Positions 3,059-17,970 of a DNA stretch of 24,833 bases are shown one piece after another. The notes beneath the pieces were generated by a model. That model was not told the DNA's origin. It saw only the letters and a list, made by a program, of their open reading frames with translations, and did not search any database. Numbering within the stretch: the first letter of the stretch is position 1; every line of letters starts with the position of its first letter. Source of the DNA: a virus (Duplodnaviria > Caudoviricetes). The DNA lies in IMG/VR virus record IMGVR_UViG_3300037484_000262, positions 1 to 24,833 of that record; one strand, written 5' to 3'. Both the position numbers and the translations under genes were made by a program.

Positions 3059-4675
3059 GTGGCCTGGAAAGTCTCCGACGACCCCGACAAATTCGAGGAG
3101 GCCCTCGAGTGGTTCCGGGCCCGCACGCCGATGTCGGCCCGGATGTTCTACGCGCTCGACGCGGTGGCGCGGGACAAGGCCTTCACGGTCAGCCACGTCG
3201 CCCAGATGGACGTGGTCCAGTCGGTGCTCGGCGCGATCGACAAGGCCATCGAGTCGGGGCAGGACCTACGGCAATTCTCGGCTGAAATCGGCGACAAGCT
3301 CAAGGCCGCGTGGAAGGGCAGCGTCGGAAACCCGGCGAACAGAATTGAGGTCATATTCCGGACCAACACGGCCTCGGCGTTCTCACGGGGCCGCCAGCTC
3401 CAGATGGACTCGCCGGTCGTCTCGGCGGTTCGCCCGTGGCGGCTGTTTGACGACACAAGGGACGCTCGCGAGTCCGACATCTGCGAGGCCGCAGGCGGCA
3501 CCATCGTTCGATTCGACGACCCCTGGCTCAACGACCACACCCCGCCGCTGCACCAGCAGTGCCGCTCGAATCTCCGGGCCATGCGAGAGGAGCAGGCGCG
3601 CCGGCAGAAGGACTGGGGCAAGGCTCCACCGAAGACTACGGCCGCTGAAGGATTCGGCGTCAAGCCCACGATGGGCAACATCCTGACGACGCGGCTCAAG
3701 CCGGACTACGCCAAGTACGACACCGCTCTCGCGGCAAAGGCGAAGCTCAAGGAAAAGAAGCTCAGGCCGAAGACGCTCAAACCAACCGAGGGACCCGCGC
3801 GAACACAGCCCGAGTTCTGGGTCAAGGAATTCGAGAAGAAGTATCCCCGAGAAGTCGCCGAGACGATGGCCTATGGCCGAGCTGCGGAAGAGCGGGGGCG
3901 ATCGCTGCAGCTAGACGCGCTCGCGGGTGGGTTCAATCAGGTGCAGCACCTAGCAGACCAGCGGGCCCAGTCACAGCTCAAGAAAGCGCGTGGGCTGGTC
4001 CCGAAAGCCAAGACCGTTGGTGACCTACTTGACGGGCTTGATGCCGTTATCAAAAACTCGAAGAACGACATCGAGCGACTCGCTGACGCCACGGCAGCGC
4101 GCGAGACGCTGCGCGCCGTCTCGGCGCTGAAGGAACACCAGCGTACCGCAGGGAACGCTATCCCTGGCGTGACTGTAGCGGACAACGACAATCCGAGCCA
4201 GAGGCAGCGAGCGGCGAGAGAAGCGGCCGCAGGAGAGTCACTTAGATGGCTCCGTAAGTCCCTGGGCGCGAATGTCTCTGTGAGGCCACAGAGGGTCCAA
4301 TACACCACGGGTCGCTCATCCTACCGACCAGATATCATTGAGTGGGCGCAAAGCAGTTCTTTGGTCCATGAGTGGGGGCACAAGCTCGAAGAGGATAACC
4401 CGGCAGTAGGTAGGAGAGCGAAACGTTTCTTGGCGGCGAGAACCGCAGGAAAGTCGCCCAAGAGACTGGCCGAAATCTACGGAAACAAAGGCTACGAGGC
4501 CAGCGAGGTGGCGGTCGAGGACAGCTTTATCGAGCCCTACATGGGCAAACAATACTCGGGCCCATACAGCGAGATCACCTCGATGGGTCTTCAGTTGATG
4601 TTCGAGAACTACGGTGCGCGACTCCTGGCCAACGACCCCGAGTATTTCTGGTTCATTCTAGGGCAAATGGCGTGA
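3059..4675 (+). CDS. MuF (Mu gp30 / SPP1 gp7-like) head morphogenesis protein with C-terminal HExxH zinc-metallopeptidase-like extension, 538 aa
   Basis: N-terminal MuF motifs: AFTVSHV, RIEVIFRTN..AFSRGR, D.W..HTPPLHQQCRS. C-terminal LVHEWGHKLE (4367-4381) and downstream YSEITSMG. Confidence 0.88.
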   Translation: MAWKVSDDPDKFEEALEWFRARTPMSARMFYALDAVARDKAFTVSHVAQMDVVQSVLGAIDKAIESGQDLRQFSAEIGDKLKAAWKGSVGNPANRIEVIFRTNTASAFSRGRQLQMDSPVVSAVRPWRLFDDTRDARESDICEAAGGTIVRFDDPWLNDHTPPLHQQCRSNLRAMREEQARRQKDWGKAPPKTTAAEGFGVKPTMGNILTTRLKPDYAKYDTALAAKAKLKEKKLRPKTLKPTEGPARTQPEFWVKEFEKKYPREVAETMAYGRAAEERGRSLQLDALAGGFNQVQHLADQRAQSQLKKARGLVPKAKTVGDLLDGLDAVIKNSKNDIERLADATAARETLRAVSALKEHQRTAGNAIPGVTVADNDNPSQRQRAAREAAAGESLRWLRKSLGANVSVRPQRVQYTTGRSSYRPDIIEWAQSSSLVHEWGHKLEEDNPAVGRRAKRFLAARTAGKSPKRLAEIYGNKGYEASEVAVEDSFIEPYMGKQYSGPYSEITSMGLQLMFENYGARLLANDPEYFWFILGQMA

Positions 4676-4956
4676 CGTGGACGTTCAGCGACGGCACCGA
4701 AGTGGACCTCGGAGTGAAGGTGCGCGGGTCGTCTGCGTTCGCCAATGCGCTACGCGCAGACCTGAAGATTGGCGTAGACGTGAGGGTCGGCCCGGTACCG
4801 GCTGAGATCACAGAGCTCGACCAGGACGACGAGCAGCAAGTCGCGCGGTGGCTGACCGACATGGCTCGAATTCACCGAGTGAGAATCTCATCCGGACCAG
4901 AGCCTGAGCCAGCGAAGTCGAGCCCATCAATCACAGGCGCTGAGCGCGTCTACTGA
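4672..4956 (+). CDS. Hypothetical protein, 94 aa; candidate immunity/partner of the MuF extension
   Basis: GTGA overlap with the MuF stop codon; sits between MuF and protease. Function inferred from position only. Confidence 0.65.
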   Translation: MTWTFSDGTEVDLGVKVRGSSAFANALRADLKIGVDVRVGPVPAEITELDQDDEQQVARWLTDMARIHRVRISSGPEPEPAKSSPSITGAERVY

Positions 4957-4967
4957 GCGAGGACACA

Positions 4968-6323
4968 ATGACCAAGTCCCCTGTGCTTGCCTTCGCGGCG
5001 AGAGCGGAGAAGAGCAAGCCGCGCACCCTGCAGGTGCTGATCTACGACGAGATCGGCGATACCGGCTGGGGCGACGGTTTCACGGCCAAGCAGCTCCGCG
5101 GGGAGCTGAAGAAGGCTGGCGAGATCGACGTCATCAACCTGCGCATCAACTCGCCCGGCGGAATCACGACCGACGGTTTCGCCATCTACAACGCGCTGCG
5201 CGAGCATCCGGCGCGGGTTGAAGTGGACATCGACGGCAACGCTTCGTCCATGGCCTCTGTCATCGCGCAAGCGGGCGACGTCCGCCGCATGGCGAACAAC
5301 GCCGAGATGATGATTCACGAGGCGAAGGTGCCGATCATGGGCTTCGTGTCGGCCGGAAAGCTTCGCTCTCTTGCTGAGCACGTCGACGTCATCAACGGCA
5401 ACATCGCATCGATCTACGTGACGGCGACGAAGCGCGACGAGGACGAGATCCGCCAGTGGATGGCGGATGAAACCTTCATGAGCGCCGAGACCGCCAAAGA
5501 ACGCGGGTTCGTTGACGAGGTTACGGCAGCTGGAGCGAAGGCCGCAGCGAAGGCCTGGAGTTGGCTAGACGAAGCGAAGGGGATCTACCGCTGGGCGGAT
5601 GAACTGCCGCCAGTCCCGGAAGCAGTCGCCGCAGCGGTAGCCGTCGTCGCACCCATTCCGGCCGAGCCAGCGGCTCCCATCGAGCTGCCGCCGGTCGAAC
5701 CCAAACCTGTACAGCAGCAATTGCCACTGGTGGCGATGCTGCCAACTCAAGCCCCGGCTACGCCCGGGCGAAAGGTAGCCATGGACATGAGAGCAATCGC
5801 CTCGGCACTTCAACTCGGGGCAGAAGCAGACGGTCCCGCCGTGCTGGCGGCCGTTGAGCGAACGGTCAAGGAACGAAACGAAGCCATCGCGCAGCGGAAC
5901 GCCCTACTGCAATCCGCTGGCGTCACGACCGTCGAAGAGGGCGTCGGGCTCATCACGGCCGGAGTCGCCGCGCTCGACAACAGCCGGGCTCTGGCGGCTC
6001 GCGTTGAGGGCCTCGAAAAAGCAGCCGAGGACCAGAAGCGCGCCGACATCATCGGCCGCATCAAGGCCGACGGCAAGTGCACGCCTGCCATGGAGATCAG
6101 CGTCTTCCCCGCGATGAGCACCGCGGCCCTCGAGCACTTCGAGAAGAGCGCGCCTCGCGTGATCGGCAAGACCGGTATCCGTGAGCCCGCACGCGGAAGC
6201 AACCCCGACGTTCTCCCGACGTGGAACGGCAAGACCTGGGAGCAAATGAAGCCGCTGGAGCGATACCAGCTCGGGCGCGAAAACCTCGACCTCTTCAACG
6301 CGATGCGCGAGTGCGCTCGCTAA
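4968..6323 (+). CDS. ClpP-like (S14) prohead protease fused to scaffold domain, 451 aa
   Basis: LIYDEIG, INSPGG..DGFAIYNAL, DGNASSMASVIA (Ser), MMIHE (His), ETFMSAETAKERGFVDEV; then Pro-rich linker and helical C-terminus. GAGGA upstream. Confidence 0.93.
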   Translation: MTKSPVLAFAARAEKSKPRTLQVLIYDEIGDTGWGDGFTAKQLRGELKKAGEIDVINLRINSPGGITTDGFAIYNALREHPARVEVDIDGNASSMASVIAQAGDVRRMANNAEMMIHEAKVPIMGFVSAGKLRSLAEHVDVINGNIASIYVTATKRDEDEIRQWMADETFMSAETAKERGFVDEVTAAGAKAAAKAWSWLDEAKGIYRWADELPPVPEAVAAAVAVVAPIPAEPAAPIELPPVEPKPVQQQLPLVAMLPTQAPATPGRKVAMDMRAIASALQLGAEADGPAVLAAVERTVKERNEAIAQRNALLQSAGVTTVEEGVGLITAGVAALDNSRALAARVEGLEKAAEDQKRADIIGRIKADGKCTPAMEISVFPAMSTAALEHFEKSAPRVIGKTGIREPARGSNPDVLPTWNGKTWEQMKPLERYQLGRENLDLFNAMRECAR

Positions 6324-6349: not shown

Positions 6350-7633
6350 ATGGCAGTTACGCAAAGCACTGATCTGGAACTCGGCAGAGAGATCCTGACT
6401 CAGGAAGTCCGAAGCGTTCTCAAGGGCAAAATGGGCCTGTTGGGAACGGTGCTCGTGTCGAGCGGCGCAGTCGTCGTCAACGGCACGATGCCAGAGAGCG
6501 GGCGCGACGCGATCGGCAAGACAGTCCGAGTCCCCTACTGGGGAAGCCTCGGTGAGTTCGAGGTGCGGACGGAGTCGCAGAGTCCCACGCCCCAAAAGCT
6601 CGGCATGACGTACGAGGACGCAACCGTGGCGCGAGCCTCGTTGGCGTTCGAGACCTCACGGTGGGCACAAGGCCTCGCGGTCGTCAACGGCACCGATGAC
6701 CCGTTTCAGGTGGCGTCAGAGCAGGCCGGCCGCAGCGCACAGCGCGCAATCGACCGTCTGATGCTGACGACCGCCCATGGATCGCCGCTGGTCCGCGCTC
6801 TCTTTAGCGCGACTGTCCCGCACTACCTGACGTACTCCGACCTCATCACGGGCAAGTCCGTGAAGCTCGGCGACGAAGACCAGGACATCGTGGCCGTCTC
6901 GGTCCACAGTCTCGTGGCTGCGGACTGGGCGAACCAGACCGACGCGCTCGGGCGTCCCCTGCTCACCAGCCAGCAGGATGGCACGGTGCAGCGGATTGCG
7001 GGGATTCCGATCATCAAGTCCGATCGGATGCCGCTTGACGGCTCCACGATGGACACCATGGTCGGTCCGTACTCGACCCTTCTGGGAGTCGCTGCGGGCA
7101 CCGGCAGCGCGACGTTCACCATCGCCGTCACGGACGCCACCCAGATGGGCCCGTGGCAGTTGGCACTCGAGGTCATCAGCACCGGCGAGTGCGGTACCGC
7201 CACGATCCGGTTCTCGACCGATGCCGGCAACACCTGGAGCGCAGCGATCACGACTTCGGCGACGGGCGTCGCGACCTCCCTCGAGGACACGGCAGTTGAC
7301 AGCCTGGTCGGCAACAACGGCAAGACGGGCGTCTCGGTGACGTTCACGTCCGGCGCGGGCGATGACCTGGTCGACGGAGAGTTCTACCGGTCCACCGCCA
7401 TCCTGTCCTGTGAGTCGCAGATCTGGCTCCCGGGAGCAGGCGCGTACTGGTACAACGAGGCCGCCCTGGGTCTCGAGACCGACCGCGACATCCTCGAGGA
7501 CACCACGATCGGCGCCATGCATCTGTACGGCGCTCCCATCGTGTACCGTCGTCGTGTTGGCGGAACCCGCCCCGGCGTGCTCCGGTTCACGAGCAACGTT
7601 CACGGCTTCATCGGCGGCGACTGGGCTCTGTAA
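6350..7633 (+). CDS. Major capsid protein (HK97 fold expected) with internal beta-rich insertion, 427 aa
   Basis: Follows the protease; strong RBS; GKTVRVPYWGSLG, DDPFQVASEQ, IAGIPIIKSDRMP and LETDRDILEDTT..HLYG match patterns of N4-gp56-family-like capsid proteins. Confidence 0.88.
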   Translation: MAVTQSTDLELGREILTQEVRSVLKGKMGLLGTVLVSSGAVVVNGTMPESGRDAIGKTVRVPYWGSLGEFEVRTESQSPTPQKLGMTYEDATVARASLAFETSRWAQGLAVVNGTDDPFQVASEQAGRSAQRAIDRLMLTTAHGSPLVRALFSATVPHYLTYSDLITGKSVKLGDEDQDIVAVSVHSLVAADWANQTDALGRPLLTSQQDGTVQRIAGIPIIKSDRMPLDGSTMDTMVGPYSTLLGVAAGTGSATFTIAVTDATQMGPWQLALEVISTGECGTATIRFSTDAGNTWSAAITTSATGVATSLEDTAVDSLVGNNGKTGVSVTFTSGAGDDLVDGEFYRSTAILSCESQIWLPGAGAYWYNEAALGLETDRDILEDTTIGAMHLYGAPIVYRRRVGGTRPGVLRFTSNVHGFIGGDWAL

Positions 7634-7657: not shown

Positions 7658-7702
7658 TGCCAGATCTGTCTGGCAGCCATCAGGGGGCCCTTCGGGGCCC
7701 CC
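7658..7702 (+). other. Tandem hairpins after the capsid gene (possible attenuator or mRNA stabiliser)
   Basis: TGCCAGA-TCTG-TCTGGCA (7658-7675) and GGGGGCCC-TTCG-GGGCCCCC (7683-7702, cUUCGg tetraloop). No U-tract follows. Confidence 0.7.
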
Positions 7703-9246: not shown

Positions 9247-10008
9247 ATGGGCGAAGATCTGAGCGTCACGCTGCACGCCAGCGGAGCAGAAACCGTTTCC
9301 GGAAGTGGGTCGGCACTCGACCTGCAATCGGACTCGGTGACGCTGCGCCGAGCTGCGGTCGTGACGCTTGGGGTGTCGGCCGTCACCGGTACCCTGACGG
9401 TGCTGGTCGACACGTCTTCCGACGGGGTCTCGTGGGACAACCTCGGGACCTTCGTGGCCGCCACCTCGGCGGGAGTTCAGGAGCTCCGGTTCGGCGACTG
9501 CAAACGCTACCTCCGGTGCCGCTGGACCATAGTGACTGGCCCGGCAACGTTCTCGGCTTCGGCTGTGGCCAAGCAAACGTTCTGTTCCCTGACCGAACTC
9601 GTTGCGCTGGGCGGGGCAGCCGACATTCTGACGACGGCCGTCACGACGTCCGAGCGACTCCTGCACCTGGCGAGCGTGTCCGCGTACGCGCGCGGGTACC
9701 TGGCGAAGGCTGGGCTGCTGCCGATCCTTGCAGTCGGTCAAGATGTGGCCCTGGCCGTGGCGCAGATTACGGTCGTCGACATCATCACGAGCGACACTGG
9801 TCCGCACCCGGACGAGGAAGCGACGGCGCTGCTTCTGGCAGCGGCAGACCGAGCCCGCAAGTGGTTCCTCGACGTTGCGGCAGGCAGGGCCGTCCCGGAC
9901 GTCACCTTCACCGACTCCGAGGACGTGGTCGACCCAGACCCTGAAGGGTTCGGCGGCGGGGCCGTCTACGGCGACGCGCAGAGAACCTGGTCGAACGCGC
10001 TACCCTGA
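9247..10008 (+). CDS. Head-tail adaptor (DUF1320 / Mu gp36-like) with extra N-terminal beta-sandwich domain, 253 aa
   Basis: C-terminal half FCSLTEL..YARGYLA..LP..ADRARKWFLDVAAGRA resembles gp36; N-terminal ~109 aa is Ser/Thr/Val-rich beta. Confidence 0.72.
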   Translation: MGEDLSVTLHASGAETVSGSGSALDLQSDSVTLRRAAVVTLGVSAVTGTLTVLVDTSSDGVSWDNLGTFVAATSAGVQELRFGDCKRYLRCRWTIVTGPATFSASAVAKQTFCSLTELVALGGAADILTTAVTTSERLLHLASVSAYARGYLAKAGLLPILAVGQDVALAVAQITVVDIITSDTGPHPDEEATALLLAAADRARKWFLDVAAGRAVPDVTFTDSEDVVDPDPEGFGGGAVYGDAQRTWSNALP

Positions 10009-11661: not shown

Positions 11662-13149
11662 GTGACGTATCCCCCTGGACAATCTTTCACGTTCCAGGAC
11701 GGCGGCATTGGCCTGGCCGTCCCCAACACCCGCTTTCCGCTGGTGGTCGGCTGCTCATCGTCTGGCGTGGCCAATACGATGTACCAGCTTGGCAGCTCAG
11801 TCGATGCCATCGCAACCCTGGGTGTAGGCCCGGGCGTGGACTTGGCGGCGATCTTGGCCGACAAGGGCGGCTGCCTGTACCTCGAGGCGACCGATGGAGT
11901 CGCTGGGGCAGCGGGTGCCGTGACTCCAGTACGGGTCGGGACATCGACCGGGACTATCACGGTTGCAGGAACCGCGACCAACGAGCATCAGGTGGCGATC
12001 GAGATCACCGCAACCGGAACGCTAGGGGCAGCGAGGTTTCGCTACAGACTCGAGTACAATGCTCTGCTCAAGGCGCAGTCAGTACTGGGTAGCGGGTGGT
12101 CCCCGGAGATCGTGGTTCCGACTGGCGCGACGTACGTCCTCGGAGCCACCGGAATCACGCTGACATTCGTCCCAGGAGCAGGCGCGGTGTTCTTCCAGGA
12201 CGGCGACGTTCACACCTTCGCCACGACTGCCCCGCACTACACGGCGGCCAACTTCACGACCGCCATGGGCGCGCTGCCGGCGCAGCTCGGGAACCTCTAC
12301 TTCGACCAGGTTTTCTGCACGGGCGTTAACAACTCCGGCGCAGACGCGGCCACGATGGCGGCAGCCGTCGAGACCGAGATGGACGATCTCGAGGACCTGT
12401 TCTATTTCGGGCGCGCCCTCATGGACGCCGGCAGCCCCGACACCGCGTCCAACGTCAAGACCGGGCTCGTGGCCTTCAGCTCGAATCGGGTTGGCGTGGT
12501 CTACGGCTACGCCTACACGGCATCGAAGGTCCCGCAGCTTGGGCGGTCAACCCCAAAGCTTCCTCTGCTCGTGAACTTCGCGGAACGCGCGGCGGATGCT
12601 GCACAGGTCGACATCAGTCAAAACCTCGGGCGCGTCCTGTCGGGCGGGCTCCGCGGCGTGAGCTATATCACCCACGACGAGGGCGACGGAACCCCTGCGT
12701 TCATCGAAGAGGACAAGATCAACACGGCCCGGACGTTCATCGGTGCCAGCGGGATCTACGCGACCAACGGCTATCTCAAGTCCGGCATGGGGTCCGACTA
12801 CCTCTATTGGGACTGGGGCTGCACGATGGACAAGATCGCGCGCGTCCAGTACCTCGCCCAGTTCCCCTGGGTGCTGGCGAAGCTCGAGTCGAAGGTCGAC
12901 GGCTCCGGACAGGTCACGGAGGGTAGCGCGCTGCGCGTCGAGTCCGCGATCCAGGGCCAGCTCAAGACAGCCATCCGCGACCCGAAGAACGTCGAGGGTG
13001 GCAATGGGTACGTCTCCGGACTGAGCTACACGATCAGCCGGACCAACAACTTCCTCTCGACTAGGCAACTGGTCACAACCACCCAGGCCGTGCCGCTCGT
13101 CCCCATCGAGGGATTCGTGTCCACCCTGGGCTTCGCTAGGAGCGTCTAA
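11662..13149 (+). CDS. Contractile tail sheath protein (DUF2586-like), 495 aa
   Basis: GAGGTG RBS; FQDGGIG N-terminus; RTFIGASGIYATNG..SDY and TMDKIAR resemble DUF2586 sheaths; followed by a tube-sized gene. Confidence 0.85.
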   Translation: MTYPPGQSFTFQDGGIGLAVPNTRFPLVVGCSSSGVANTMYQLGSSVDAIATLGVGPGVDLAAILADKGGCLYLEATDGVAGAAGAVTPVRVGTSTGTITVAGTATNEHQVAIEITATGTLGAARFRYRLEYNALLKAQSVLGSGWSPEIVVPTGATYVLGATGITLTFVPGAGAVFFQDGDVHTFATTAPHYTAANFTTAMGALPAQLGNLYFDQVFCTGVNNSGADAATMAAAVETEMDDLEDLFYFGRALMDAGSPDTASNVKTGLVAFSSNRVGVVYGYAYTASKVPQLGRSTPKLPLLVNFAERAADAAQVDISQNLGRVLSGGLRGVSYITHDEGDGTPAFIEEDKINTARTFIGASGIYATNGYLKSGMGSDYLYWDWGCTMDKIARVQYLAQFPWVLAKLESKVDGSGQVTEGSALRVESAIQGQLKTAIRDPKNVEGGNGYVSGLSYTISRTNNFLSTRQLVTTTQAVPLVPIEGFVSTLGFARSV

Positions 13150-17066: not shown

Positions 17067-17626
17067 CCTACGACCAGAAGGCAGAGCTCTGGAACAACCC
17101 GCTGATCGGTAGCGTGTGGCTGCCGGGGAAGTGCCTGCTATCCATCGACGGCGGCGGGCGCGACATTGACCAGCAGAAGCAGAAGGGGTCGAACAAGGCG
17201 TATTCCGAGGACAACGGCGAAAACCTCGTGACGGGCTCGATCCTGGTTCAGCTCCCCTCGATCGACTGTCCCGAATACGAGATGTGGGTGGCAGTCGCCG
17301 CTCTGCTCGACCCAAACAGTCCATCGGCGAGCACGGGCCCGCAGGAGATCATCCACCCCGCGACCGAGCTCAAGGGCGTCAAGGCCATCCGGATCCAGCA
17401 GATCACCTACCCGGCTCCGAGTGCGAAGGACGGGTTCAATCCGCGGATCAAGTGGATAGAATTCGCCGAGAAACCGAAGGAAGTCAAGAAGGCGGCGACG
17501 AAGAAGAGCGAGAACGTCTCGACGCTCGACCGCCAGCAGCCCCTCATTCAGCCCATCGGGCCACCGAGCGCCCCAGGCTTGAGCGGAATGGACGCCTTCG
17601 ACAACGCCATGAAGGGCTATTCCTGA
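17063..17626 (+). CDS. Tail / baseplate tube-initiator-like protein, 187 aa
   Basis: ATGA overlap with tape measure; position; IIHPATELKGV..I..IEF pattern. Confidence 0.65.
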   Translation: MTYDQKAELWNNPLIGSVWLPGKCLLSIDGGGRDIDQQKQKGSNKAYSEDNGENLVTGSILVQLPSIDCPEYEMWVAVAALLDPNSPSASTGPQEIIHPATELKGVKAIRIQQITYPAPSAKDGFNPRIKWIEFAEKPKEVKKAATKKSENVSTLDRQQPLIQPIGPPSAPGLSGMDAFDNAMKGYS

Positions 17627-17970
17627 CAGTCGATCCTGACAGTGCAGACCTCACCCGAGCGGCTTTCGAGGTCCAGGCTGCCGGAGCATCCAGTCAGGCG
17701 CTCGTGGGGATTGCTTGGATCCTCGATCGCGACTCTGTCCTCGGCTGACTGCCAGCAATCAATGACACCCAGGGCACCGTCGGGTTCCTGAGCCCGGCAG
17801 AACCACTCGTGCAGCAGGATGGTCGCATCGGTCGGGAGTTCGTAGGTGCGGCCGTAGCAGTCGTACGAATAGCCCAACACGGCCGAGCCGGGATCGGATT
17901 CGGAGTCAGACCCGCAAGCGGTCACGGTGCAGGCCAGAGCGAGCACGAAAACATAGAGTTTGGTCGTCAT
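17617..17970 (-). CDS. Cys-rich lipoprotein, 117 aa, antisense to the tail operon
   Basis: MTTK + hydrophobic LYVFVLALACT + lipobox VTA-C19, then Ser/Asp linker; six further Cys. Fills the gap between two + strand genes. Confidence 0.78.
   Translation of the reverse strand: MTTKLYVFVLALACTVTACGSDSESDPGSAVLGYSYDCYGRTYELPTDATILLHEWFCRAQEPDGALGVIDCWQSAEDRVAIEDPSNPHERLTGCSGSLDLESRSGEVCTVRIDCQE

Follow-up and report, generated by a model that had tools for sequence, protein, structure and literature searches.

The window, that is, the whole record of 24,833 bases analyzed here, is occupied by the morphogenesis genes of an uncultured Mu-like phage with a contractile tail. They encode a terminase, a Mu-type portal, a gpF-like minor head protein, a ClpP-type protease, the capsid, neck proteins, sheath, tube, tape measure and baseplate. 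The major capsid protein (6350..7633, plus strand, 427 aa) was assigned to the HK97 fold by PHROG, a family-profile match to the SPP1 coat and a structural model. An all-beta domain is inserted in this protein at aa 230-351 (7037..7402, plus strand), as delimited by alignment with insert-less relatives, the model and homology to the sheath. The contractile tail sheath protein (11662..13149, plus strand, 495 aa), a DUF2586 family member by Pfam, phrog_907 and its model, carries a copy of the domain at aa 82-191 (11905..12234, plus strand), recognized by profile homology, strand pattern and a match to FlgK. No third copy was found in the window, which therefore contains two in total. The first-pass annotation had noticed the resemblance and had placed the copies at 7049..7399 and 11938-12234. 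The motifs that it quoted from capsid and sheath are present where it put them, and its limits have been refined to those given above.

Several other features of the window are outside this comparison. The gpF-like minor head protein (3059-4675, plus strand) has a C-terminal extension (aa 417-537) that matches unnamed PHROGs and contains an HEXXH-like motif, which may indicate a metallopeptidase. The next ORF (4672-4956, plus strand, 94 aa) belongs to no family, and the two genes together resemble a MuF toxin with its small partner gene. In the product of 4968-6323 (plus strand), a Mu I-like scaffold region is C-terminally fused to a ClpP-type head protease. A perfect 8-bp GC hairpin with a TTCG loop lies at 7683-7702, 50 bases past the capsid stop; a T run is absent there, and a terminator was not called. 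The 253-aa ORF at 9247-10008 (plus strand), in the position of a head-tail adaptor, looks like a fusion of an N-terminal domain of about 105 aa with a helical part. The N-terminal domain matched phrog_9522 (E 2.4e-9) and, below threshold, Bbp16 (E 0.032), and the ORF showed a weak likeness (E 0.006) to a small accessory protein from another locus (L076) that bears the domain shared by capsid and sheath. Between two tail genes, an opposite-strand ORF (17617-17970, minus strand, 117 aa) with a lipoprotein-like signal and several cysteines is possibly an exclusion or moron gene.

Apart from the insert, the capsid protein is, as modeled, an HK97-fold protein. It matched the PHROG major head families 247, 544 and 10, its family profile matched the SPP1 coat (E 4.5e-8), and the model superposed best on 8h89_A (Z 16.6, rmsd 3.8, 270 aligned residues). 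Fold searches used the whole chain, and the matches were capsids throughout. The cultured phages with a matching capsid were Thermus phage Riverbug and Meiothermus phages MMP7 and MMP17 (3 of 50,697 records), at 30-35% identity to the window capsid in the N-terminal part. The insert comprises 122 residues and was modeled by AlphaFold2 as strands only (pLDDT 81-91).

Insert-less relatives were recruited by a search with the N-terminal capsid core alone. The loci contained 78 distinct complete capsids, which fall into 47 of 378-466 aa, all with the domain, and 31 of 283-307 aa, none with it. In the short capsids, the same two flanking strands are joined directly by a turn of about six residues, and this sets the limits of the insert at aa 230-351. 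Judged by this alignment, the capsid segment is a true insertion that replaces a short turn between two A-domain strands. The first-pass annotation had thus correctly described an extra in-chain segment in an HK97-fold capsid, since the short relatives share its flanks. The segment is not the core A-domain itself, which the insert-less relatives keep whole. Since these relatives assemble their capsids without it, the insert is not essential. One capsid (L102, 3152-4636) runs into a poly-proline stretch and has lost its normal C-terminus, probably by an assembly error or frameshift.

The sheath protein is a DUF2586 family member with a contractile-sheath fold: PF10758 matched at 52.5 bits (cut-off 26.4), and the model aligned with solved sheaths at Z up to 27.3 (8kee_A). 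AlphaFold2 confidence for the copy in this protein was 92-96, except for one loop at 71-77.

As a single pair, capsid insert and sheath copy are weak evidence for homology (BLASTP 28% identity over 113 columns, 30 bits, E 1e-4). We therefore compared families. The capsid alignment consisted of the window protein and 77 of 82 homologues (five fragments were left out), the sheath alignment of the window protein and 113 of 120 listed homologues (the query itself, fragments and two forms of greater length were excluded). With hhalign, the 78 capsids and 114 sheaths matched at a probability of 97.1 and E 5.1e-11; the sole alignment reported places capsid 228-341 on sheath 75-175. An HMM of the capsid insert scored at least 15 bits for 113 of 114 sheath segments, but for none of 1,140 shuffled and none of 114 reversed segments. 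In the opposite direction, a sheath HMM reached this score for 45 of 78 capsid segments, 0 of 780 shuffled and 0 of 78 reversed ones. The separate AlphaFold2 models, compared by strand list, agree in the order of their seven strands (capsid 238-241, 255-260, 270-275, 285-289, 308-312, 325-333 and 345 onward; sheath 88-90, 98-103, 110-117, 125-129, 157-160, 165-170 and 183-189). The proposed homology of capsid insert and sheath domain is borne out by the profile-profile E-value, the clean shuffles and the similar strand order.

One could still argue that Gly/Thr/Ala-rich beta strands and the Asp-box make the two segments look alike by composition. The pairwise score of only 30 bits would fit such an artefact, as would the fact that the domain profile also gathers Asp-box repeat proteins (9 of the best 150 matches, without a long match). 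However, none of the 1,920 shuffled and 192 reversed segments, pooled over both HMM directions, reached 15 bits, and the strand order is equal in both models. The controls rule out the artefact, to which we give practically no credence. The Asp-box-like motif that had been pointed out in the capsid copy (aa 289-296, 7214..7237, plus strand) is real by pattern count, as 73 of the 78 capsids and 26 of the 114 sheaths contain it, but it forms a single hairpin and occurs only once per domain. BNR matches were weak (12 of 51 domain sequences). With one motif per domain and PDB matches that span the motif only, the domain does not qualify as a BNR/Asp-box propeller. The Asp-box is a single structural hairpin, and it implies no sialidase activity.

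The closest counterpart of the capsid insert in position is the I-domain of P22 gp5 (aa 222-345 of 430), which is also inserted in the A-domain and has residues that form inter-subunit salt bridges, according to the available text of PMC9965877. By that account, the two have in common a length of about 120 aa, an all-beta character, the in-chain location in the A-domain of an HK97 fold and the matching position. The coats of P22, Sf6 and CUS-3 were among the top 10 Foldseek matches of the capsid, with a whole-chain rmsd of about 20 A. From the flanking strands and the numbering, we infer that the insertion site is the hairpin that holds the P22 I-domain, and therefore that the domain points outward. 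A search of PDB sequences with the domain profile (E up to 10, 39 matches) did not retrieve P22, Sf6 or CUS-3, so the site is a known one, occupied here by a domain that is different or has diverged beyond recognition. No report of the P22 I-domain on tail or flagellar proteins was found.

Additions to sheath proteins are also known. The authors who described the insertion domain (InD) of sheath gp6 of Vibrio phage XM1 (PDB 7kh1) found a likeness to flagellar FliD D3 (bioRxiv 10.1101/2021.12.18.469577). It is, as here, a flagellar-like sheath insertion, but in the accessible part of that preprint it is presented as unique to XM1, and it is on the sheath only. The structure 7kh1 and our sheath model aligned over 297 of 497 residues in a whole-chain comparison, and the domain profile did not match XM1 7kh1 among PDB sequences (E up to 10). 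Additional beta domains of sheath proteins, with adhesion as their proposed role, are described in PMC9230969, and coat-protein insertion domains and shuffled Ig-like domains in PMC7602432 (available sections of both). The Ig-like domains covered there are likewise small beta modules shuffled over head, tail and baseplate, including insertions in coat proteins. The domain described here, in contrast, has its nearest solved fold in a flagellar protein and lies in mid-chain. Among the 51 domain sequences, no Ig or carbohydrate-binding family scored above cut-off; the best matches of Ig-clan type were weak and limited to one sequence each (TIG E 0.025, Big_12 E 0.026, cadherin-like E 0.04). The promiscuity of Ig-like domains (I-set, FN3, Big_2) in tailed phages was reportedly described by Fraser et al. 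in 2006, as cited in PMC9230969 and PMC7602432.

The sheath is the more constant carrier of the domain. Where a sheath was in view (26 loci without one are left out of the count), it had the domain in all 34 insert-bearing and all 18 insert-less relatives, the cultured Thermus phage Riverbug and Meiothermus phage MMP17 among them. Since the sheath carries the domain in both lineages alike, the simplest reading of these sequences is that the domain first belonged to the sheath and may have entered the capsid gene later.

A capsid insert is not particularly close to the sheath of its own genome. Its score to the own sheath had a mean percentile of 0.55 among other sheaths (31 loci); the window was at 0.79, and 5 of 31 loci were at 0.89 or above. 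The first-pass annotation was correct that the domain is shared between the capsid and the phage's own sheath, but the own sheath has no special status. Capsid copies resemble one another much more than they resemble any sheath copy (median for the window copy 193.5 to capsid copies versus 91 to its own sheath), and no DNA-level match between capsid and sheath copies was longer than 13 bases. Recent copying from the own sheath is ruled out by these short matches and the percentile. As capsid copies are not nearest to their own sheath and lack likeness at the DNA level, the comparisons identify the two as old paralogues, with lineage-wide sharing and no ongoing exchange with the own sheath.

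In a tree of the capsid core, 45 insert-bearing capsids lie on one side of a branch (SH-aLRT 98), and 2 further ones are found among the insert-less capsids, so that two changes are needed. A single insert-bearing clade was not rejected (p-AU 0.54). The domain thus seems to have entered the capsid gene once or twice. The tree of the domain itself has just 91 columns and is poorly resolved.

The domain also has flagellar relatives. A scan of bacterial genomes with the capsid pattern led to an FlgL-type protein (locus L048), which the domain profile matched at E 3.5e-12 (hhalign). In the same bacterial order, 36 of 101 genomes had a domain match, and among the matches listed, 23 of 23 ORFs (20 loci) were flagellar: 20 have Flagellin_N and the size of FlgL, and 3 have marks of FlgK or Flg_bbr_C. 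The structural comparison agrees. Sheath aa 84-189 aligned with 335-421 of solved FlgK (4ut1_A) over 83 residues (rmsd 2.8) with a middling Z of 7.0, and the sheath copy matched Atlas FlgK models at TM 0.71 and 0.62. On the strength of sequence comparison, the domain is homologous to the FlgK/FlgL hook-junction domain, and by its homology to the sheath copy, the capsid copy would share the fold of the FlgK outer domains. Like the phage domain, FlgK D2/D3 (PDB 4ut1; Pfam PF21158) and the FlgL outer domain sit on the outside of subunits that form a polymer; these are flagellar, whereas the phage copies are on head and tail, and the capsid copy has an extra loop. At E up to 0.1, the Pfam model PF21158 (flgK_1st_1) matched none of the 51 domain sequences. 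The module had been called a beta-sandwich, a label that is not established because the closest solved fold is described as a beta-barrel; in the available text of PMC5691160, the FlgK outer domains are eight-stranded barrels.

The domain is widespread and not confined to head and sheath. A mixed profile of the 51 domain sequences retrieved 2,744 of 1.84 billion representatives at E of 0.001 or below, some of them Asp-box-only noise. The best 150 of the 2,744, a ranking that favours multi-copy proteins, comprise 92 sheaths (by core profile; 16 with one copy, 68 with two and 8 with three), 8 capsids with one copy each, and 50 other proteins. Pfam was run on 39 of these 50 (11 very long repeat proteins were omitted) and identified 6 DUF2586, 3 Baseplate_J, 3 pectate-lyase-like, 2 Mu gp36 (one below cut-off) and 1 E1_FCCH protein; 24 had no family above cut-off. 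Three genomes (L076, L083, L102) have the domain on capsid, small accessory protein and sheath, and the small accessory carriers had no family match. In cultured Myxococcus phage Mx4, the domain is found in the sheath and at the N-terminus of the baseplate wedge protein p64 (L107, 20559-22022). A protein of 512 aa (P0262) with an apparent signal peptide and C-terminal membrane anchor has two domain copies, which suggests that the domain may also be used on the cell surface. Thus, the earlier claim of one module on head and sheath is correct for both, but neck, baseplate and spike proteins contain the module too, as do FlgK/FlgL. Among Pfam, PHROG and NCBIfam, no model covers the phage domain in the copies searched, and an Atlas feature search with the capsid insert gave no usable match.

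The capsid copies differ from the sheath copies by a conserved loop of 12-13 residues (aa 313-325, 7286..7324, plus strand), the pattern of which is matched by 74 of the 78 capsids and by none of the 114 sheaths. Column identity over this loop is 0.85, compared with 0.55-0.67 for core regions of the capsid. In the core-recruited set (41 proteins), the loop is at 0.77 versus 0.59 and 0.66 and ties with the C-terminal strands for the top 13-residue windows. Of the 47 insert-bearing capsids, the 7 of types B and C are without the loop, and its pattern is not matched by 13 of 42 core-recruited domain carriers.

We propose that the domain folds alone, with both chain ends together at one hairpin, and that it could therefore be inserted in polymer-forming proteins without disturbing their core. 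It is predicted to lie on the outer side of every head and sheath subunit, which on the head would amount to one domain per capsid subunit. The clade of the window phage would then have gained the loop of 12-13 residues in the domain, and this loop would pack on the shell or on a neighboring subunit, as the loops of the P22 I-domain do. Because the loop is capsid-only and strongly conserved, reinforcement of the shell appears likelier than adhesion, and on balance we lean slightly towards the domain being a built-in reinforcing coat of the head that acts via this loop. The conservation of the loop would fit a site that binds a ligand or metal equally well. A complex predictor run on two copies of the capsid insert returned a score of 0.00 and was uninformative on self-association.

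Other roles have to be weighed against a reinforcing coat. The domain may be a weak multivalent adhesin, hundreds of copies of which, on head, neck, sheath and baseplate, would bind glycans of the cell surface or matrix and keep the particle near its hosts, as has been proposed for phage Ig-like domains. Its presence on many virion proteins, in tandem copies and beside pectate-lyase-like domains, and in a probable cell-surface protein would suit an adhesin, and adhesion is the role put forward for extra sheath domains (PMC9230969, available text). However, the capsid copy is conserved like the capsid core (0.58-0.62 versus 0.55-0.67), unlike what one would expect of an adhesin that tracks its hosts. 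With no carbohydrate-binding or Ig family above cut-off and an Asp-box that is a single structural hairpin, we consider adhesion possible but unlikely. The same conservation, for a single copy over a clade of 45 capsids, and the near-invariant capsid-only loop also argue against a tolerated passenger or passive shield, recombined into permissive loops, that guards against proteases or fouling and has no specific partner. Although the patchy distribution (31 of 78 distinct capsids are without the domain), the variable copy number on sheaths and a sequence rich in small residues would all be expected of such a passenger, we regard it as rather improbable.

The flagellar homology raises the question of whether the domain came from the hook-junction proteins of the host and kept an affinity for the flagellum, so that the particle docks on or near it. 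Besides the matches in 36 of 101 genomes and the uniformly flagellar nature of the 23 ORFs, this idea can draw on the flagellar origin proposed for the XM1 sheath insertion domain (bioRxiv 10.1101/2021.12.18.469577, accessible part). Shared ancestry, however, does not show a shared ligand, and the domain is far more varied among virion proteins; we judge flagellar docking to be very improbable. A broader proposal would make the domain family a general plug-in coat for protein polymers, here a built-in capsid cement with one domain per subunit that is found also on sheath, neck and baseplate, with a virion surface derived from the flagellum that binds or mimics the host flagellum. As a whole, this proposal is a long shot.

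The shuffling of surface domains among virion proteins and insertion in the A-domain are known already; what seems new is the placement on both capsid and sheath. In the literature covered (supplements and most subscription journals fall outside it), we found no paper on the domain family or on the capsid and sheath pairing. We also found none on DUF2586 as a sheath, or on a phage capsid insertion domain with a link to flagellar hook-associated proteins.

Together, these observations define a domain family of considerable size (as many as 2,744 clusters at 50% identity, including some Asp-box-only noise) that lacks a library model and ties phage virions to flagellar junction proteins by sequence. 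The permissive hairpin of the capsid is also a candidate for display at full occupancy on phage capsids. Among close capsids, those with and those without the domain share one gene order, and cultured insert-less relatives exist. They form a natural with/without series for an HK97 insertion domain, which makes the role and origin of capsid I-domains testable.
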